Below, piece by piece: positions 2,237 through 53,258 of a stretch of DNA of 64,000 nt. The translations under genes and the position numbers were made by a program. The notes under the pieces were generated by a model, which worked only from the letters and a program-made list of their open reading frames with translations, ran no database searches and had not been told where the DNA came from. The stretch's first letter is position 1. Each line of letters starts with the position of its first letter. Source of the DNA: Camelus dromedarius (lineage: Eukaryota); assembly GCF_036321535.1 (NCBI RefSeq), contig NC_087436.1:29576001-29640000 (forward strand). The letters run 5' to 3'.

Positions 2237-4950
2237 ATTCCATTCAACGAACAAAATAGTATAATCTCCAAATATAAAAAAAAATAATTAATGCAATGAC
2301 TACTGAACAAGGACATACTGTTATTGAGGAAATTAATATGATACATTGGAAAGAAAATAATCATAAAAATTAACTAAGTTTGAACTTGAATCTCCTGTCT
2401 GCTTCTTTAATAGCCATGAAATCTTAGATAAGTTTATTAAAATTTTGAAAATTTATGTACTCCAGATAGAAAATGGAGACTATGAGACATAAACTATGAT
2501 GCCCATAGTTATTAAAAAAAATGTTAGTTTTCTTATATTATCCTTGCCTGCAATGTATTTTGTTGCGCATGACAAAGATCCCAGTAACTGTTTTAATGTG
2601 ACATAAACCCGTGCTTTCCAGCTTTGGTAGTTTCCCACTGATAGTTTCTAATGATGCCCAGTTTCTCTTAAGATTTATCAATAAAGTCCTTGGCCTCCAA
2701 GGAGCCAGGTGAATTACTTTTACCCTTACCACCATGAATACTAGGCTGTTTATGGCAGAGCTCCTTTAAAGCTCTGTATCTAAACCATGAACAGACCTTT
2801 CAGAAAATAGCTCCAAGTTCTCCAGAGAAACATCTAGAATATCTTAGCTACGCCTCATTCTGTCATAGCTTTTCCGTAGTTTATTTTTGCTTACTCTCAG
2901 GCAAAACACAGTGCTGATACTCCCTGAGATGAGGTTAAAATCACAAACATTCAGACCTTTTCTTTCTTGTCAAATGATGTAAACTATGTTCCACAGGCAA
3001 CTTCCCAACTCAGGTATGCAAAAGACTTGAAAACATCCCCAGAGGTCTTTCAGTTTCCTGAATAAAACCCGTAAGCCATGAGGAAAAGAGAGTCCAGCCA
3101 GACCAGATCTGGGCATCCCTTAGGTCTTTCATGCAAATATTCAGACTAATCTCTAATAATTGCATGGATATTTAAGGTTATTGCACAAATTACATTTAAT
3201 ATACCTGTGCTCACCATCTGCTCTACTCCTTGGGGAAGTGACACTGGACATTTGGGAATTCTTTTTTATATGCAATGATGTTTTATAGCTCATAAAGTAT
3301 GAATGAAATAAACCCTTTTAATTTTAATCACATATGAGACATTTATACTACTTCAAGGAGAGTTATGTATCTCTTGTTTAAAGGTGACAAATTATAGAGG
3401 CAAGGAATATACACAGGTATGCACATCCCAAATATACCACATTTCAATGAATTATTTCATTTTTACTGACTTTGTTCAAGAACAATATTTTTTAATGTAG
3501 CATCAATTCAGGCAGAAGAAAGACAGGAATTTTATCTTTCTAAGCAGATGTCAAAAACATTTAAACAGCTGTCAGACCAGTTCAAACTGTCATCAGAAGT
3601 GACCTTAAACCAAGTTTAGTTTTTAAATATTATTTAAAAAAAGAAGTGAAAAGACAACACAGTGCCGTTATGCAGCTGTCTGAAATATTAAATGACAGAA
3701 TGAACATCTGTTCAGTTGCTCTTCAAACTTTAATGGTTTGGAGAGAAATTCTGTTGTCTCAGATCTTTAAGAACATCTGAGGCCCATACAGCTTCAACAC
3801 CTGTGAAAGATCCTCTCTGAAAATGTACATTCTCACTTCAAAGTCTTTTACTACTGTTCTTTGCCAAACATATGCCAGTAAACAACAGAACATATTATTA
3901 ACAATACTTATCATATTTAAGGTCCTCTTGTAGTATATATTTCAGAGTGAGAATAAAACCCTTTGGGCTTTACTATACTTTTATTCACAGAAATACATAT
4001 TTTATTTTTCTTGCAAATACTAAAACAGAGCAATTTGGTAGCAAACAATTGAGATATCATTTTTAGCTTATCTGAACACTGGATATCTACAATTATTTGT
4101 TTTTAGAATTAGCTATAGATTAACTTGTTTGTATATTGGCTATGGTGCCATTATTTTAAATTCAGTCCTCTGAATACGATTATTTCATTTCACCTTTATG
4201 AGAAAATTATTCCTTCTGTAATTGAAAAAAAATCCTCACAGAAAAGCATCAGGCTTATATTAATGTATTATTTGAATAAAAACTACCTTGCTGATATAAA
4301 TAAAATACTTCTAGACATATATTTGCCTACTTAGCGTGAACATGCACATTCTGTTTATGTCTCTTACACACATACACCTATATGTGAGTAAGCATATATT
4401 TATATATGTATGTGTGTGTGTGTGTGTATGTGTGTCTGTGCACGTATAACAGATTTTCTACATGCTAGCAGGTGATACAGCACTCCAAATTTAATATCCA
4501 AAATCTGAAATCATCTCTGGCCAAAGAGATTCAATATAAATCAACTTATGTACATTAACAACGGAGAAACTTCTGTTCCCAGATCCTTCTTCTAACCTGA
4601 AAGCATCTTCAATTTCCCTATTGGTCTTTTGCATCTTTGAAGAGAAATCAAATTTAGGATTGAAAATCCTAATGGCTATTAAATCCAAAATTGTTTTAAG
4701 TTAAACTGGAATTTTAAAACTTGCACACCACCACATATGAGAGTTCTGAAAAGAAGCTCTAATAAACATTTCACCTGAAGAATATACATCAGATTTTAAA
4801 TGCTACCAATTGAAAAGTACTAGTGAAAACAGGAAAAAATTTAGAGGGAGACTGTACTTTTACTCTAATGCTTGGACACATGAGGGATATATCTTTATAC
4901 TGATATTAGACCCCAAAATTCAATTCCTTCATGCTCCTACAGATGAAAAT

Positions 4951-12100: not shown

Positions 12101-12840
12101 ATTACCGTTACGCAAATTAAAGTACCTTTGAGTAGTTGCTTTGCATATGTTTATTTAGAAAAGAATAAAATAAAAATATATTGTAGTGATACTGATAGCC
12201 TTGGACACCACTGGTACACCAAATATTCTTTCAATTTACTTAAAATTTTGTGGAGCAACAGATTTGAAGAGTCATAAAAATTCAGATCTTTGAATGTAGT
12301 GAGCTCTTCTTTTCACTCAATAATATATTCCTAGGAAGTGTTCAAGATAGTCACTTATCAGTCTTATAAATGTGAAACGAGATAAACTACAGATAAAATG
12401 AAATTTTCAAAATAAAAAAGCATAATTTTTCTAGTAGTGTTTACAAATGAAAGATTAACGTTTACCTATGGATGAAACATAGGAAAAAAAAAAACAAGTA
12501 TAACAGAAAACATAATTTTTGAAGCAGTGAATTCAAGATGCTAAAGTCCAAATTAGAATTTTTTCATGTTCTGAAACAGAATGCATAAAATTATATTTTT
12601 TTGCAAATTTTACTTTTCTATGAGTTGAATATTTGTTTTAAGAAATAATTACCAGTTAAATGCCTCTTCAACAAACATAACCCTCTCACGTATATTATGA
12701 ACATCTGTCACTAGAAGAAATTAAACAATATTAAACTTACAGGAAAAGGTTATATTGATACCATGTGAATTTTCTTTACTAGTTAACTTAAAAATCCAAT
12801 TTATAGGAAAAATAGGCACCTGAGAAAACGGAACATCCAG

Positions 12841-13497
12841 CCTGGTCCTTAACTTCCAGCACACACCCTCGGTAACCAGAGGCCACCCGTGATGAGGGAC
12901 CAGAAAGGACCCTGGGGGTCGCAGAGTAACGACAACTTCGAAGGCTACAGGAAGGCCCTGGATATTGATTTTGCCTCCTGCAATATGTCGTCTGTCTGAC
13001 TTAGATGACGATCATCCAGAAAGATGGTGATAAGTTCAAGGCGAAAACCAACCGCATATTTCGCAACTACAACATCAATTTCGCGGGGTGGAGGAGTTTG
13101 ACGAGGACACAAAGGGCCTGGACAACCGGAATGTTAAGACGCTGGTCATCTGGCAAAGTGATGCCCTTGTGTCCGTGCAGAAAGGGGAAAAGAAGAACCG
13201 TGGCTCCAAGCAGCGAGTCGAGGGGAACAAGCAGTACCTGGAGCTGACGTGCAGAGACCGGGTGTCCGTCAAGCGGTCAAGGAGTAATGGCGGTGAGGGC
13301 GCCTACTGAGCATGCACTCCACACTCCCTGCGAAAAGTTCTGTACTGGCTTTGGGACGCCGCCGCCGGGACCCTCCCTCTCCTGGCAGAGCCCCTTAGAG
13401 CATCCGGATGGGTTTTAAAACAAACGAGTGAGTAACAGTGACAGACACATTCGTTACTTCCTTGAAAGCTGGCATTAAACGAAAAGACAAACAAAAA
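12841..13497 (+). pseudogene. RBP2: Processed pseudogene of cellular retinol-binding protein 2 (CRBP-II)
   Basis: The three frames stitch to (V)[27 protein letters not shown] / [17 protein letters not shown] / [36 protein letters not shown], matching RBP2. RBP2-like 5'UTR from 12841. All three intron positions are fused. Start codon mutated to GTG (12889), about 3 frameshifts and an in-frame stop. ATTAAA at 13474 is followed by an A-rich tail. Confidence 0.95.
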
Positions 13498-13830
13498 TTT
13501 GTTTCTAATTATAAAACATTTGAAAGTTTATGTTCCACGACGGAACGGTGATTATTAAAATAGATACTAGTACATATATATATAATAAAATAGCAACTAC
13601 TTATCTAAAATTATGTAGTATAACAAGAATATCAGGTGACATTGAATATGTCATTATATTTTCTTAAGTAAAAATTAGGTATGTCACATTCAATTATAAT
13701 CAAATTTTTGTTGAAAAGAGACAGGATTTTTGAACGTGGTTGTTTGCGTGAGGCTGCCCCTTTTGCAACATAACCCTGTTAACAGTAAAAACTCTGACCA
13801 GTGCTCTGAGTTGGAGGACTTTACTATTCA

Positions 13831-23147: not shown

Positions 23148-23960
23148 TTATACTTTCCACTACACTAGGAGTAGACCTTATATGAATTCCAGGGTTTTGG
23201 TGTGCTTATCTCTGGAAGGCAACATAAAATAGGAAGACTAGTGGGACAATTGTATCCCCTGCTACTGCAACTGGACTCTGGACCGTAACTGCTACGCTTT
23301 ATCTCTCATTATCTCCCTCCCTGTCATCCAATCTTGACAAAATCAAGTAGCAATTCTGCTGGCATAAGTGGCTTCACTGGTGGTAGGATTCAGACTCTCA
23401 TTTATCAGTCAAAAAATATAATATTGGTAGCATGTCCAGCTGGTCCTGGTCTTTTTGGATGATGTCAAGACAGAAGGTAGAAGAAACAACATAGCCCTGG
23501 GCAAGATAGTAAATGAATACTGAGGTCTGTTCCAAGTAAATACAAACTGTTTCAGCTCCTCTGTTCTGATAGAAATGGAAAATAACCAATTTGCCAGATC
23601 AGTGGCTGCATACCATGTACCAGAGGCCATGTTAATTTTCTCCAGCAAAGATATCACATCTGGCAGAGAAGCTACAATTGAGTTATTACCTGGTTGAGTC
23701 TGCAGTTATCCACTGTCTGTCCTTAGGTTCCATCTGCTTTTTTATTGAGCCAGATGGTTCAAATGGAGATATGATGAATCCTTGGATCCTTTAGATCTTT
23801 AAGAGTTGTACTAATTTCTGCCATTTCCCATGGGGTTCAGTATTGTTTAAATTTATTTTATTGGCTGGGGGCAAGTATGTTTTTTAATATCCATATTTAT
23901 TAATTTTGTCCTGAAAGCAAACATGAGGTTTCTATATTAGCAATCAGTACTTACTACGGC
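23148..23960 (-). mobile_element. ERV-L internal remnant with RT fragment
   Basis: ORF 23409-23657 ISLLEKINMASGTWYAATDLAN..FSI..KQFVFTW..QYSFTILP matches ERV-L pol RT. Confidence 0.9.
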
Positions 23961-24432
23961 AATAACAGCACTGATATCCTGGACCCTAATCCTCCTTGGG
24001 CAGATGTCACCTGCACATTTACAGGAGAAGAGCCCTGAAATTATGTGTCTGGGAGTTTATATAGGAACTTTTGACACCACCCCCACTGCACTCCCCAAGC
24101 CTCCACCCCTGAAAGAGGGAGGCAAACCTTCCTCAAAATGTAAGCAAATCCTCTCTTAGAAAAGCATGCTGTTTTTACAGCGTTTTGGAATATCAGCGAA
24201 TGCTTTAGGGGTTTATTACCTTTAAAATGCAATAACACAACTATAGATATAACACCCTGAGAATGTGAAGAGCAAATAGTTCTGGAGGAAATGGCACATT
24301 CTCTGTCTTTATAGCATGTCAATTTTCTTTGCTCCAAAACTCCTGACAATGCAGAAATATGAAAATATCTTTCCCCACAGAAGGTGATAGTTTTAGAAGC
24401 TTGCACTTGGGTTTCACTATGATAGCTCTTAC

Positions 24433-24760
24433 CTTGCAAGGCAAGGCACAAACAGAAGATTCTTCCAATTACCTAGAGTGTCTATTTCCATTAGTATCTA
24501 TTTGGGGAGTGGAGAAATAGCTACCTGACGGCTTTGCAGGCCCAGCAGCCCCACTGTGAGCCCAACCCACAGGGCTGATACGCTCAAATATCCATTTGCC
24601 TCATATGCCCCCTCGCTAACAGGGGCCCGCCATGGTATTCTGGCCTGCTGCATACAGTGATAAGTCTGTGTCTGATACACACTTTACAGGCGAAAAGCAC
24701 TATTGCTATTACTAGACTGCATTCTCAGTATGCAGACTGTAGCTCCCAAGAAACTTTAGA
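24433..24760 (-). promoter_or_regulatory. Candidate promoter and first exon (ZNF143/SBS-like motifs, residual CpGs, splice donors)
   Basis: Non-repeat GC-richer patch; two tandem degenerate ACTACAnnTCCCAGnATGC-like motifs at 24715-24733 and 24735-24754; minus-strand donors CAG|gtagct (after 24525) and AAG|gtaaga (after 24433). Confidence 0.35.
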
Positions 24761-26132
24761 CTTTAAAACTCTAGGGGTTTTGGGGGAGGTTTACTAAGGT
24801 TATTTTTCTACTTCTTGACATTTTCACATGAGACTTTTCTCTTTACTAATAATTATGGAACATAAACATCTAACTCTCTTCCAAGTCTCTGCCCAGCCCT
24901 CCTGCCCCAAACACACAAAGTGCACACATATCCACACACCCCTAGATTCACTTCTCCCACCCCCAGATCCAATCGAGCTATAGATTTAATTTTTAAAACA
25001 TCACTAAGCACTATGTGCATCATTATAAGGATGTACATATTTACAACTAATTTACTTAATGTTCTATGTTTGTTACAAAGCCTTTCTTATATAACTTTTG
25101 TTTTCTCTTGAATTACTGGTGCACTGTTTTTTTACATTTGCTGATTTAAAAATCCTTCTTTCACTTTTTAATGTAATTTTTGTGTGATTTTATTATAATG
25201 AAATGTACTATAATGAATATTATATTTGATATAATGAAATGTAGTCCTAGGAATTATTATTTAAATAATATCACAACAATTTGGATCCCATTTTTCAGAG
25301 ACGTTATTTGCTCACAATTTAGTGTATATTCTTATAGAATTGTTCTCATGCACATATGCATATATGTGAAATGCGTATTTCTTGTATATCAAAATCCGAT
25401 AATACTAATTAATATGTAAACAGAAGTAACACAGCATAATGATTGCAGGTATAATTCTGGAGGCAGAATACTTAGTTTTAAATTATAGTCCCGCTTTCTT
25501 CACATATTAAATAATGTAATAATAACTACCTTATAGCTTTGAAATATATATTTGTTAATTTATATATACATTATATAAGTTTTTGCTAATCTATTATCCT
25601 TTGTGCTTACTTTGGTAGTATCATGGACAACTTTTTGTGTCAAAATATATAAATGTACCTAAAAGTAAATAATATGACTGCGTCATCTTGCAAACCCCCC
25701 AAATCAAATAACATTCACATAAAAATTGTCAGGAAATTATATAAAATCAAAGAAATGCCACCTTTGAGATACTTCGGTTTTCTCTGTGAAAGGCACATAA
25801 TCCATTGTTGAAGAAGCACTCTCTTTTCTGATAATGAGTCAACAAAGTTACTGATGGATTGTGCTACATGGGTAACAAAGAGCATTTGTGAGGCAAATGT
25901 TACAAGTTCAAGTTTCACATTATTAATTATTATCATTCATATTAAGGCATATGGGGCCATATCACAGTATAAGTTAATCTCCACTAAAATAAAATAATAC
26001 GGATTTGGAGAACTGAGGTAGATATTTAAGATAAACATTGCCTCTCTAAGACACCTGACTCAAGCCCCATTGCATCTGATGCATTGTAGAGCCAGGGATG
26101 TGACAGTTTGCACCACAACCTAAATTTGTTAT

Positions 26133-26837
26133 GAAACAGAACCAACACTTTCTGAGAAAGAGAGAGAAAGAGTGAAAGAGAGATTTATAAGATTTTTTTT
26201 TTACTGCAGCACTTCATTTTCCTCACATAATGACATGATTCTCACATGACAGTAGAAAACTAAAATTTGTTGTCATCTCTTAAAGAACTTGGAATTGTGT
26301 ACAAATTACATAAATTTAAAAATAAATAAATTTACAGGTGTAAATGCCAACCCTCTTCCAATTCAAGGCAAGTAACAACAACTTCTGGTTAGAAAAGATC
26401 AGGTAACATGTTATCTTATATAGAAATTATAAAGAATTGGCTCACATGATTTTGAAGGCTGGGAAATCCCACAATCTGCCATCTGCAAGGCAGAGACCCA
26501 GGAAAGCCAGCGGTGTTGTTCCAGCCCAAGTCTGAAGGCCTAAGAACCAGGAACACTAATGCTGCAATTCCCAGTTCAAGGGCAACACAAGAGTAATTTT
26601 ATAGCTCAAGCAGTCAAAGAGTGGAGTCTCCCTCCATGTGCCTTTTTATTATAATCAGACTCTCAATGGATTGGAAGATGCCCACCTATTTTGGGAAGGG
26701 CATCTGCTTTATTCAGTCTACCAATTCAAATAATCTCACTCGGAAACACCCTCACACACACCCAAGAAATAATGTTTGACTAAATGTCTGAGCACCCCAT
26801 GACCCAAGCATGTTGACACATGTACTTATCAATTACA
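26133..26837 (-). mobile_element. MLT2 (C/D-like) LTR inserted in ERV-L pol, split by a retro-fragment
   Basis: gaaacagaaccaac..gagagatttataag / gaattggctcacatgatt..gaaatcccacaatctgccatctgcaag..gaaacaccctcac..gttgacaca. Confidence 0.85.
26193..26406 (-). pseudogene. ACTG1: 5'-truncated processed pseudogene fragment (terminal 3'UTR of gamma-actin)
   Basis: Minus strand ...tgttacttgccttgaattggaag..gcatttacacctgtaaat..aagagatgacaacaaatttt.gttttctactgtcatgtgagaa..gtcattatgtgaggaaaa..aagtgctgcagt plus A10 matches the ACTG1 mRNA 3' end as I recall it; imperfect TSD agatttataaga / agaaattataaaga. Confidence 0.85.
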
Positions 26838-28969
26838 GTAGCCTTCTAAGAGAGTACAAGCTGTCTTCAAAGTCCAAAGAGATGCACCGTAACCTCTGCT
26901 TTATTCATAGAGGTAGAAGATGCCATGTTCCGCACCTTCTCCTTTACCTTAATACGACTTCTTGTCATGGTCCAAATCACTGAACTCTTGAAAATCCCCA
27001 TGTGAGAAAGCCGAATCTTTGAAAGGTTTCTTTCTCTTCCTAGCATGCATGTTTCTCATTAGGGCATCGAGTGTACTTTTTACTTCCTGTTCTTTAGGTA
27101 CAATTAGCATGATGTCAGGCATGAATACAGTGGACCAGTGTGAGTTATGTGGAATGTCAAAATGATCAAGGTCCTTTTGAACTCTCTTGTGACAGAGCAA
27201 GACAGTTAACATAATTCTGGTGCAAAATATATGTAAATTGCTGTTCTTATGTGCATAAGAACGGATTTTTATCTTCTTTACTAATGGAGATTGAAACTAA
27301 TGCACTATCTAGATCAATAACCTATAAAAATTTCCAAAAGCTGTATTTTCCCCCAGTACAGATACTGTAAAAGCTGTGATGGGGGACTACTGCTTGGTTG
27401 AGTTATAATTGGGACCACTATTTGGTTAAGTTTTCTGGCATCGTTTGCCACTTTGGGCTGGGGTGGAAATTGGAAATTAATGTGGATGGGACGAGAATCA
27501 CTATTCATATATTCTTAATTTTTCAAAGGTGGAGAGTTTGGGGGGTTTAGTTTCCAACTACACCCTTTCTTTCACTAATGACCCTTAAATTAAAGGCCAG
27601 TGGACCCAAGTGAGAGCTCTGTCAATTATTAAACGTATCTCCCATAAGTTGTGACTTTAGAATAAGGGGAATGAAAGAGAGTGAGAGCTTGTCGTCATCT
27701 TATTTACTGAAACGCTGAGATTCACATGCTAAGACTACATTTATCTTTTAGTTTCCACCTACTTCCTGCCAGCAAAGTCCATTACTTATCCGCAGGCATC
27801 AGTGTCACCTCGGGGCTTTTGCCCTACAAACTTTTGCCTGTAGGTGTAAGTGTTTCTCCTCCCTGCCTCCAACCATGTAAATTACTCTGATAAATGAGAA
27901 TAAACCATTTTGGAAAAATTGGGGAGATATTTATTGTCCTTATGTGTAGTGATGTTTCAGGGTCATTTTCAAAGAAACCTTGCCTCCATTCCAGTCTATG
28001 GACTCTGGGCTTAAGAACTGCTCAGAGCTAGAAACTGGGTGAGGAAGCATGATTTTCCATTTTGACAGTTGACATGATTTTCACCAGGTTTTGACTTGAT
28101 CCTCCTGTTCTAAAATTTAAGGAACAATCAGGTCACCTGTTACTTTTCTTACTCTTGGGACACTGTGGCCCATCACCACATATCCCCTAGACATAAGGAC
28201 CCTGGCTGCCACTTAGCTCTTGTGGTTCAATAAAATAATTATTTCTGCCTTGTATGTGATGTTTAATTGTCATTATCTGGCCTTTGTTATTCAAGAATCT
28301 TCTCATTCCCATTAACAAAAAAACCCAGTTTCATGGCTGTCAACGTGAATGTTGACTTAGCTATTCAACTTAGCTACTCAAAGATGTTGGTACACCCACA
28401 CTAGTGTATTCTTTTTTGCAATAATAAAGTGAAAGTCTCCTTAGCCCTTTGAGGGGAATATTATCCATTTGTATATGCCCTGGTTTTATGTAATAAAGTT
28501 TTTTTTGACCACACCACATCCCTGTGCATCCTGATATCTCTCTCACACTCTACAGGACAGTCTGGGTTTGGGCATCTCTACTTCATAATTTTTGGCCATT
28601 GACATACAAAACTTCAAAGAATCGTCCCACCAGCGTATTATGACCATCTAATGCTATTCTTGCCAAGATCTTAAATCCCATGCTACGCTGCTATTTCAAC
28701 AAGCTTTTCTTTATCCTGCCTTGTATTCTACTTCCTGGCCCAATACCCTCAAGATTCACTCCCATATGTGTTATTACTCAGGTACTACAATTAATGTAAT
28801 TGGTAAGTTCTTTCTTCCTAGAGCAATAACTGTATTACCCAACTCAGAATATTCTGTGACCTCACCTTTGTTAGTGATAGGGAGGCAATTAGGGGAAGAC
28901 GAGGATAATCATCAACACATTGTAAAGTAGTGCCCACATAGATGAGGTTTTTAATTTGTTTGTTTGGTT

Positions 28970-29208
28970 TTTCCTTTCCTCCCTCCCTTGTTTCCTCCCT
29001 TCCTCCTTTCCTCTCTTCCTTCTTTCCTCTTTCCTTCCTTCCTTCTTTCCTTTCCTTTTCTTTTCTTCCTTCCTTCCTTTCTCTCTCTCTCTTCCTTCCT
29101 TCCTCATTTTCTTCCTTTCTTTCTCTTTCTTTCTTCCTTTCTTCCTTCCCTCCTTCCTTCCTTCCTTCCTTCCTTCCTTCCTTTCTTTCTTTCTTTCTTT
29201 CTTTCTTC

Positions 29209-29295
<87 letters not shown>

Positions 29296-29378
29296 TCCTT
29301 CCTTCCTTCCTTCCTTCCTTCCTTCCTTCTTTCCTTCCTTCCTTCCTTCCTTTCTTTTCTTTCTTTCTTTCCTTCCTT
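28970..29378. repeat. Long compound (TTTC)n/(TTCC)n polypyrimidine microsatellite
   Basis: About 400 bp of nearly pure C/T; source of the five spurious low-complexity ORFs. Confidence 0.98.
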
Positions 29379-29705
29379 AATATCCAAAGACATCTCTCCC
29401 CTATGGAGACAGGCTGCATATGCTGGCCCAGAGAGAGGTTTTAGGACAATCTGGTGTTTAAGGTTCTCATATGCATCTATTCAAATGTCCTCATCTTGGG
29501 TCTCAGAGACTCACTCATTACCAATCAGGGCACTGACTTTGACACAAAAAGCAGCCATATATCACTTCTGCTTTCATGAAATGCCCAGAGTCAAGAGTTA
29601 GCTAACCTAAAGCTGTTATTTTCTTTTTCCAGGCTTAAAAAGCATTTTAAAAAATGCCACTGACTCTATAATCCTTATGATCATTATTTCTCCCAAATGT
29701 TAGAG

Positions 29706-36663: not shown

Positions 36664-37280
36664 TGAAGGAGTTACAAAATGGCTTCCCTGATGCTAAAAC
36701 AGTTTACAGAGTTTACTGTGGCTGATTAACTTATTTTCTTGGAGTTCTTTCTAACTGACTATCATGTTTTTTTCCTTGCCACTGCTGTTGTTTAATTGCT
36801 TAGATGATTATGTGCTTAGCAACTCCAACTATGATTTACGCCCTACTCTACATAACCTGTATCCAAAACCCTGAAGTTATTTTCCAGAAAGAAGGCCATG
36901 GAATGATAACCCTGAAGGAACGGCCAGATCGCCCAGAAGCCCAGAAGCCCAGAAGCCCCTGTGACATCAGAAGGATCAGACCAGATAACGCCAAGGCCTT
37001 GGGCAGGACCTACTTAATGGACCACGAGAAGTTCCCATGATGCACGATAAACTTTTGTAAAAGACTCTATTGTTCGTTATCACTGATATGCTCCCGTCCT
37101 GCTTGCCTATATAATCACCAAGCCCCAACCCCAAGATAGATTCAGTTTCCAAGGCATTAGTCTGCTATGACTCCCCTTTGCCAGGCAAAACAATAAAGCA
37201 GCTCTCTTCTTTGCTCCCTAAACTCTGCTTCCAAGTCTGAATTCACTGTATAGGGTGCAGAGGCTGAGTTTTCAGCAACA
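36664..37280 (+). mobile_element. Solo ERV1-class LTR, 617 bp
   Basis: TG...CA termini with exact 4-bp TSD AAAT (36660-36663 / 37281-37284); TATATAA at ~37107; AATAAA at ~37192; (gcccagaa)x3. Confidence 0.88.
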
Positions 37281-50821: not shown

Positions 50822-53258
50822 GATATTTAATCTCTAGGTCCATCCATGTTGCTGCAAATGGCTTTATTTCATTCTCTTTTATGGCTGAGTAGTATTTCAT
50901 TGTATAAATATACCACTTCTTCTTTATTTACTCATCTGTTCATAGACATTTAGGTTGCTTCCATGTCTTGGTGATTGTAAATAGTGTTGCTATGGACACT
51001 GAGGTGCATGTAACTTTTCAAATTAGAACTTACTCTTAATATATGCCCAGGAGTGGGACTGGTGAATCATATGGTAACTCTACTTTTAGTTTTTTGAAGA
51101 AACCTCCATATTGTTCTCCATAGTGGCTTCAATAACTCACATCCCTACCAGCAGCTTTTATTATTTGTAAACTTTTTAATGATGGCTATTCTGAGTGGTG
51201 TGAGGTGATACCTCATCGTAGTTTTGATTTGCATTCCTCCAATAATTAGTGATATTGAGCATCTTTTTCATGTGCCTTTTGGCCATATGGATGTCTTTGG
51301 AGAAATGTTTATTTAGGTCTTCTGACCATTTTTTGATTAGTTTATAAAAAATATATATTAAGCTGTATGAGTTGTTTGCATATTTTGGAAATTAATTCCT
51401 TGTCAATCGTGTCATTTGCAAATATTTTCTTCCATTCCACAGATTGTCTCTTCATTTTGTTTATGGTTTCCTTTCCTGTGCAAAAGCTTTTTGTTTAATT
51501 AGATCCCATTTGCTTATTTCTTCTTTTATTTATGTCAAAGATGTTCTGCCTATATTTTCCTCTAGGCGTTTTATAGTATCTGGTCTTACGTTTGGGTATT
51601 TAATCCATTTTGAGTTTATTTTTGCATATGGTGTTAGAGAAATGTTCTAATTTTTTTCTTTTATCTGTAACTATCCAGTTTTCACAGCATCACTTATTGA
51701 AGAGAGAGTCATTTCTCCATTGCATATTCTTACTCCTTTGTCATTAATTGACCATAGTGCATGGGTTTATTTCTGGACTTTCTATCCTGTTCCATTGATT
51801 TATACGTCTATTTTTGTGCCAGTACCATACTGTTCTGATTACTGTACTTTGTAGTACAGTCTGAAGTCAGGGAGAATGATTCCACCAGCTCCCTTCTTCT
51901 TTCTCAAGATTGTTCTAGCTATTCAGGATTTTTTGTGTTTTTATATAAAAAATCCCATTGGTAATTTGATAGGGATTGCATTGAATCTGTACATTGTCTT
52001 GGGTAGTATGGCTATTTTAACAATATTGATTCTTTTAATCCAAGAACACAGTATATCTTTCCATCTATTCAGAAAGATAGATGGAAATCTTCACTTTCTT
52101 TCATCAATGTCTCAGTTTTTGGAGTACGGGTCTTTTGCCTTCTTAGGTAGGTTTATTCCTAGGTATTTTATTCTTTTCGATGTGATGGTGAAGGGGATTG
52201 TTTCCTTAATAAAACTTTTTCTGATATTTTGTTGTTAGTGTATAGAAATACAACAGATTTCTGTATATTAATTTTGTATTCTTCAACTTTACCACATTCA
52301 TTGATGAGCTCTAATAGTTTTCTGGTGGTGTCATTAGGATTTTCTATGTATAGTATCATGTCATCTGCAAACAGTTGCAGTTTCACTTCTTCTTTTCCAC
52401 CTTGCACTCCTTTTATTTCTTTTTCTTCTCTGACTGCTGTGGCTAAGACTTACAAAACTCCGCTGAATAAAAATGGAGAGAGTGGGCATTCTTGTCTTGT
52501 TTTTGATCCTTAGAAGAAATGCTTTCAGCTTTTCATCATTGAGTATGATGTCAGCTGTGGGTTTGTCATATATGAATTTCTGAAGAGTCTTTATCATAAA
52601 TAGATACTGAATTTTATCAAAAGCTTTTTCTTTATCTATTGAGATGATCATGTGGTTTTTTATTGTTCAATTTGTTAATGTGGTGTATCACACTGATTTG
52701 TGGATATTGAAAAATCCTTGCATCCCTGAGATAAAACCTACTTGATCATGATGTGTGAGCCTTTTGATGTATTGATGGAGTTTGTTTGCTAGTATTTTGT
52801 GGAAGATTTTTTGCATCTATGCTCATCAGGGATATTGGTCTTTAATTTTCTGTTCTTTTTCTTTCTTTTGTGTGTGTGTGTGTGTGAGATATCTTTGTCT
52901 GTTTTTGGTATTAGGCTTATAGCGGCCTCACAGAATCAGTTTGGAAGTGTTCCTTCCTCTGCAAGTTTTTGGAATAGTTTTAGAAGGATAGGCAGTAATT
53001 CTTTTCTAAATGTTTGGTAGAATTCACGTGGGAAGCCATCTGGTACTAGACTTTTGTTTGTTGGTAGGTTTTGAATTACTGATTCAATTTCAGTACTGGT
53101 AATTGGTGTGTTCATATTATCTACTTCTTCTTGGTTCAGTCTTGGGAGATTGTGCCTTTCTAAGAATTTGTCCATTTCTTCTAGGTTGTCCATTTTATTG
53201 TATAGTTGCTAGCAGTAGCCTCTTACGATCTCTGTATTTCTGTGGTGTCGGATGTAAC
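50822..53258 (-). mobile_element. L1 ORF2 fragment (Z/RT to C-terminal region), disrupted
   Basis: ORFs [51 protein letters not shown] and [21 protein letters not shown] are L1 ORF2; frameshifts and deletions present. Confidence 0.97.

Follow-up and report, generated by a model that had tools for sequence, protein, structure and literature searches.

The window analyzed here, a 64-kb stretch (C1:29576001-29640000) of a 2.31 Gb genome, holds a neutrally decaying processed pseudogene of RBP2, which we call copy A, and this dead gene carries an apparently orphan CpG island in AT-rich, CpG-poor DNA. From comparison with its relatives in the same genome, we consider it probable that the island was kept by retention under low germ-line methylation, starting from an intron-less, CpG-rich stretch. 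New CpGs in copy A arise at chance rate and then persist, and the signature of biased gene conversion belongs to a sister retrocopy on the same contig, copy B, and not to copy A.

The RBP2 retrocopy and its CpG island

Searching the genome with copy A gave at least seven matches, namely copy A itself, the four exons of the parent gene, copy B, and a short piece referred to as fragment C. RBP2 was the top PDB match of copy A (E 2.8e-22), while Pfam assigned no family to three ORFs. The four parent exons, spread over 21.7 kb on C2 and translating into the full 134-residue RBP2, match one unbroken stretch in copy A, with all three introns missing. On the plus strand of the window this stretch begins with a 24-nt leader (12814-12837), found by pattern search to be common to copy B and not present at the parent locus, and continues with a part derived from the 5′ UTR (12838-12888), as seen in a three-way alignment with parent exon 1. 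The dead coding region (12889-13287), delimited with the codon table, the PDB match and the parent exons on C2, is followed by a part aligning with the 3′ UTR (13288-13490), which has a GCC-rich run at 13355-13368 and the polyA signal ATTAAA at 13474-13479, and then by a decayed A/T-rich tail recognized from sequence and alignment (13480-13525). The start codon is lost, 1-bp deletions lie near 12986, 13087 and 13266, a stop occupies 13002-13004, and one Lys codon is missing near 13279. Changes private to copy A affect 7 of 80 synonymous and 34 of 322 non-synonymous sites by the codon table, and copy A is therefore neutral at the protein level. The original prediction of a dead RBP2 retrocopy is well supported by the missing introns, the frameshifts, the stop, the lost start, and the polyA signal and tail. 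A young insertion is ruled out by the divergence of 15–17% from the parent and 20% from copy B. No target-site duplication was found for copy A or copy B; the best for copy A is a 7-nt repeat of 12828-12834 at 13540-13546 (plus strand), a possible remnant that is not significant (shuffle p 0.25).

Only two GenBank gene models lie at copy A, and both are built on the pseudogene itself. The proteins EPY78081.1 and KAB1282625.1, each named ‘retinol-binding protein 2’, are annotation artefacts in which this pseudogene is combined with unrelated ORFs. The models, which are single-member and come from Camelus ferus and C. dromedarius, match the residues of copy A exactly over the covered stretches, placing the genome among the camels, with the stitched coordinates being window 12892-13293 with 36819-37037, and 3078-3125. 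An intact retrogene was ruled out, as the models in its support bridge the breaks and run on into distant ORFs. Neither the list of ORFs nor a crude search for splice sites gave a convincing exon in the 64 kb, a result still compatible with a very long intron. Elsewhere in the window, judging by eye, ORFs with reverse-transcriptase-like wording at 23409-27300 (23.4–27.3 kb) suggest old LTR-element remnants, ORFs at 51855-53208 (51.9–53.2 kb) suggest a LINE-1 ORF2 fragment, and a long purine/pyrimidine microsatellite array occupies 28950-29440.

A CpG island is at least 500 bp long, with a GC content of at least 55% and an observed-to-expected CpG ratio (O/E) of at least 0.65. The sequence of copy A passes this definition, narrowly so for GC, with values of 0.552 (O/E 0.74) for the 500 bp from 12894 and 0.553 (O/E 0.70) for the 600 bp from 12813. 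We place the island at 12813-13426, where 600-bp windows have a GC of 0.547–0.553, an O/E of 0.70–0.74 and 32–33 CpGs. About 34 CpGs had been predicted for 12841-13490 amid CpG-poor, AT-rich DNA, and exactly 34 were counted, with an O/E of 0.74 against 0.18 for the whole window (GC 0.33); other 650-bp windows in the 64 kb have a median of 3 and a maximum of 9. The measured GC of 12841-13490, 0.532, agrees with the roughly 55% that had been claimed. Also present as described are GACGCCGCCGCCGG and a donor-like GTGAGT at 13428-13433 (plus strand), both found in copy B as well. The latter, a putative splice site, is absent in the parent and fragment C; GTGAGT occurs 8 times on the plus strand of the window, and 0.37 donor-like matches are expected per shuffled copy. 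All five codon changes that had been named were recovered in comparison with the parent gene in this genome (ATG>GTG at 12889, ATG>TCG at 12919, TGG>CGA at 13214, CAG>CGG at 13259 and GTG>GCG at 13273), four of them private to copy A and one, TGG>CGN, common to copy B. The claim of extra CpGs in both flanks holds marginally, as 5.9–8.4% of comparable flank pairs (100–1000 bp) in the window reach the same number, but the CpG of aaaacggaac sits in the shared leader and not in unrelated flanking DNA.

The sister copy and the origin of the pair

Copy B is located 8.6 Mb away on the same contig (C1:21015718-21016373, with its leader from 21015707) and is 78% identical to copy A. Its island is stronger in composition, with 46 CpGs, a GC of 0.60 and an O/E of 0.82. 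The flanks of the two copies are unrelated, homology stops at the polyA tail, and since the flanks do not align, segmental duplication was ruled out. In the pattern search the 24-nt leader had exact matches only at copy A and C1:21015707, and it is absent within 130 kb around the parent, where the best match has 9 mismatches in 27. No match supported the leader as a member of a repeat family or as an exon upstream in the parent gene; one match with three mismatches, on C15, is without further likeness to the parent region. Copies A and B also have three deletions in common (1 bp at codon 127, the Lys codon at 132 and a 7-bp gap in the 3′ UTR), and they share changes at Thr52, Trp107 and Trp110, where rat, human and other relatives have conserved residues. 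For comparison, in all 15 pairs of independent old GAPDH copies the shared deleted columns number 0–1. Given the shared leader and the three shared deletions, a transcript of one copy probably served as the template for the other, with either direction being compatible. If so, the source copy would at that time have produced RNA in the germ line or the early embryo. Among the 24 sequencing runs listed, two recorded as RNA contain fractions of 0.34 and 0.20 of the sequence words and two guessed to be RNA contain 0.26 and 0.20, which gives no evidence of transcription; the parent mRNA has only 6 of 1371 31-mers in common. A literature search of limited coverage found no RBP2 retrocopy in camels and no retrocopies of retrocopies.

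As far as origin is concerned, A and B might instead have been copied independently from an ancient RBP2 transcript that carried an upstream leader exon, since lost from the camel gene. At the very point where homology begins, the parent has a CAG after CTAAC and a pyrimidine run, and the shared sites are as many as a star tree would give. However, the leader remains unmatched around the parent, and the frameshifting 1-bp deletion, the lost Lys codon and the Trp changes, all shared, would be impossible to obtain from a working parent mRNA, so we regard an independent origin as unlikely.

The surroundings of copy B hold two further elements. An LTR-like repeat on the same strand (C1:21014900-21015358), with 40 other matches that are about 70% identical, ends approximately 350 bp upstream of copy B and is a possible promoter. 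Fragment C (C1:21015408-21015515, minus strand) is a separate 5′-truncated insertion of the RBP2 3′ end with its own 8-nt flanking repeat; it lies upstream of copy B, about 190 bp away and in inverted orientation, forming an inverted repeat with it, and is 89% identical to the parent and 78–80% identical to A or B. Two of the three RBP2 insertions are thus close neighbours. The camel parent itself differs from rat and human at two conserved residues (Thr38 to Ile and Thr121 to Arg), and its silent sites seem to have become poorer in GC and CpGs.

Probable CpG retention in copy A and the signature of biased conversion in copy B

Of the 34 CpGs in copy A, 12 are present in the modern parent, 12 are common to copy B only and 10 are private. 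Over 631 ungapped columns the ancestor of A and B has about 33 CpGs and 55.5% GC, and compared to this ancestor copy A has lost 9 CpGs and gained 9, where 7.8 gains are expected (context-blind permutation, p 0.38). The net gain that had been predicted for copy A is thus not supported. The prediction that its CpGs arose after insertion does apply to single new CpGs at amino-acid-changing sites, but lacks support for the island as a whole, with 12 of the 34 already in the modern parent. Copy B has lost 7 and gained 19, where permutation gives 19.2, and with gains in both copies matching permutation, selection for new CpGs was rejected.

At 39 sites A and B agree with each other and differ from the parent, and these are not polarised at the DNA level; a metagenome scan for outgroup RBP2 DNA gave 5 loci from 475 candidates, which at 59–83% identity over exon 2 were too distant to use. 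Within the coding region the shared differences fall at 9 of 80 synonymous and 7 of 322 non-synonymous sites. Of these seven, the rat and human residues show two to be parent-derived, three are derived on the stem leading to A and B, and two are ambiguous, leaving 3–5 of 322 non-synonymous sites to mark the stem. A neutral stem of 1–1.5% would yield about one synonymous change as opposed to the nine shared ones observed, so most of the differences that A and B share against the parent probably arose on the parent’s lineage, and a comparison with the modern protein would then overstate CpG gain. The idea that all shared sites stem from a GC-biased stem was dropped after this codon analysis. Losses in the parent cannot be the whole account either, since 15 CpG losses are needed and only 6 of them are transitions; true stem gains must therefore be present among the 12 shared CpGs, the one at codon 110 at the least, and their number lies between 1 and 12. 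Fragment C has the parental state at two sites and the A/B state at one (13428).

To put the decay of these CpGs on a scale, we used 12 GAPDH retrocopies from the same genome. At approximately 15% non-CpG divergence copy A keeps 13 of 20 parental CpGs and copy B keeps 13 of 22, compared to 9 of 184 in the eight GAPDH copies at 10–22% divergence (Fisher p of 2e-10 and 1e-9 for A and B, respectively). The four younger GAPDH copies (3.6–5.5% divergence), which were left out of this sum, keep 5/33, 17/34, 17/37 and 12/37. One of the eight, lying between A and B on the same contig, keeps 2 of 36. The ratio of CpG to non-CpG transitions is 3.2 in copy A (9/66 vs. 12/278), or 3.7 when corrected, and 11.7–16.4 in the four young GAPDH copies, which puts CpG decay in copy A at about one quarter to one third of the rate of ordinary pseudogenes in the same genome. 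The observation behind the original prediction, that this old pseudogene has not lost its CpGs in the usual way, is borne out by these counts. In the densest 300 bp of GAPDH, where 16 CpGs equal the density of the RBP2 ancestor, only 4 of 82 are kept; density alone therefore does not explain the protection of copy A, and length or bound factors would have to matter. Among the controls, the GAPDH retrocopy at C19:11851304 has the most gains, with 0 of 12 parental CpGs kept and 9 gained; its 1.9 CpGs per 100 bp are below the 3.1 of copy A.

The two copies differ in their substitution bias. Outside ancestral CpGs, copy A has 18 AT-to-GC changes (W>S) at 276 sites and 17 GC-to-AT changes (S>W) at 278 sites, or 10 and 17 without any CpG sites, giving an equilibrium GC of 0.52 and 0.37, respectively. 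The W>S share is slightly above that for an equilibrium of 35% (p 0.03), and against 40% the p value is 0.11. In copy B the private changes are 36/276 W>S vs. 7/278 S>W (Fisher p 2e-6), with an equilibrium GC of 0.84. The conversion hotspot that had been proposed for copy A is thus not reflected in its 18:17 changes, and copy B, at 36:7, is the better candidate.

We can outline a probable history of the pair. The ancient RBP2 mRNA would have been CpG-rich, with roughly 33 CpGs in 631 nt and 55% GC, and loss of 21 kb of introns would have joined four short exons into a single CpG- and GC-rich stretch. Such DNA can form island chromatin unaided (PMC4204011). The joined stretch probably escaped germ-line methylation for the most part, in which case old CpGs would survive and new ones would not be erased. 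In the germ line or the early embryo, one copy would have given transcripts that started upstream of the insert, with a second retrotransposition giving rise to the other copy. Copy B may later have become a site of GC-biased gene conversion while copy A did not, or did so weakly; default hotspots are known to sit in hypomethylated DNA (PMC11161765).

Other accounts of the island can be weighed against this history. Its CpGs could mostly have been gained after insertion through a GC-biased gene conversion hotspot, either here or in the common ancestor of A and B, given that 22 of the 34 are not in the modern parent, that transversions, which are not what methylation decay produces, separate many shared CpGs from the parent, and that copy B bears the conversion signature strongly. 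The 39 shared sites, if placed on the stem, would comprise 22 W>S and 6 S>W changes, similar to copy B. Yet the own branch of copy A is without clear bias (equilibrium GC 0.37–0.52), and with so short a stem the majority of shared sites agree with changes on the parent’s lineage, as illustrated by the two parent-derived sites and by fragment C siding with A and B at 13428, making this account an unlikely one. That selection kept the island for driving a non-coding transcript, as its promoter or enhancer, is doubtful: one copy was once transcribed if one was copied from the other, and a YY1-like core and the donor are common to A and B and absent in the parent (both motifs are used here in their generally known form), but CpG gains do not exceed chance, short single motifs of this kind are expected at 0.2–0.4 per shuffle, and the overall divergence, with 8.9% private changes, is not reduced. 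Orphan islands do often start transcripts (PMC5927659), which could favour such selection.

By analogy with CpG 85 in PPP1R26P1, the island could also be an imprinted-type differentially methylated region (DMR), maternally methylated and unmethylated in sperm. The intermediate CpG decay ratio (3.7 vs. 12–16) is what methylation from one parent could give, although partial or time-limited methylation yields the same ratio, and both copies carry a donor-like site after the island. Against this, the ZFP57 hexamer motif, in its generally known form, occurs 0 times in A and 0 times in B, and the crude scan shows no host exon in the 64 kb, known cases being intronic. Both of these points make imprinting less likely for copy A, and even with the precedent (PMC3839921) it seems to us quite improbable. 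Retention under low germ-line methylation thus continues to be the reading we prefer. In its broadest form it would hold that CpG-rich retrocopies in the AT-rich gene deserts of camelids regularly escape methylation, become germ-line promoters that seed further retrocopies and then turn into long-lived PRDM9-independent hotspots, with the RBP2 trio recording the three steps and fragment C showing that a copy already in place can attract insertion of the same mRNA, but we think it unlikely that the pattern is this general.

Comparison with known retrocopy-derived islands

Copy A is one more retrocopy-derived CpG island, a known kind of event. About a hundred human intronic islands come from retrotransposition (PMC4122923), and orphan islands can act as promoters (PMC5927659); as in these reports, copy A is an apparently orphan island brought about by retrotransposition whose fate would be set by both sequence and site. 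The closest likeness is to PPP1R26P1/CpG 85 in intron 2 of human RB1, where a retrocopy keeps an island from an ordinary CpG-rich parent exon, as here, and where the authors conclude that the CpG-rich progenitor arrived with the insert (PMC3839921). PPP1R26P1 is intronic and has been shown to be an imprinted DMR and promoter, whereas for copy A no host gene is seen in the 64 kb and the island is known from its sequence alone. In addition, the intergenic sister retrocopies of PPP1R26 lost their CpGs (PMC3839921), while both full RBP2 copies keep them, copy A being apparently intergenic.

In many mammals, PRDM9-independent hotspots occur in hypomethylated DNA, according to a study whose main text does not name camelids (PMC11161765). 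Copy B resembles these default hotspots in having a CpG island, 36 W>S vs. 7 S>W changes and an equilibrium GC of about 0.8, and copy A lacks the bias. Two sister pseudogenes on one chromosome that both escaped CpG decay, with only copy B biased, make up a small natural experiment, in which low methylation can be separated from recombination as a maker of CpG islands. It is important to note that what looks like CpG ‘gain’ when judged by a modern parent can in fact be retention. Unlike retrocopy islands in general, the copy A and B pair, together with controls from the same genome, separates retention (copy A) from biased conversion (copy B).
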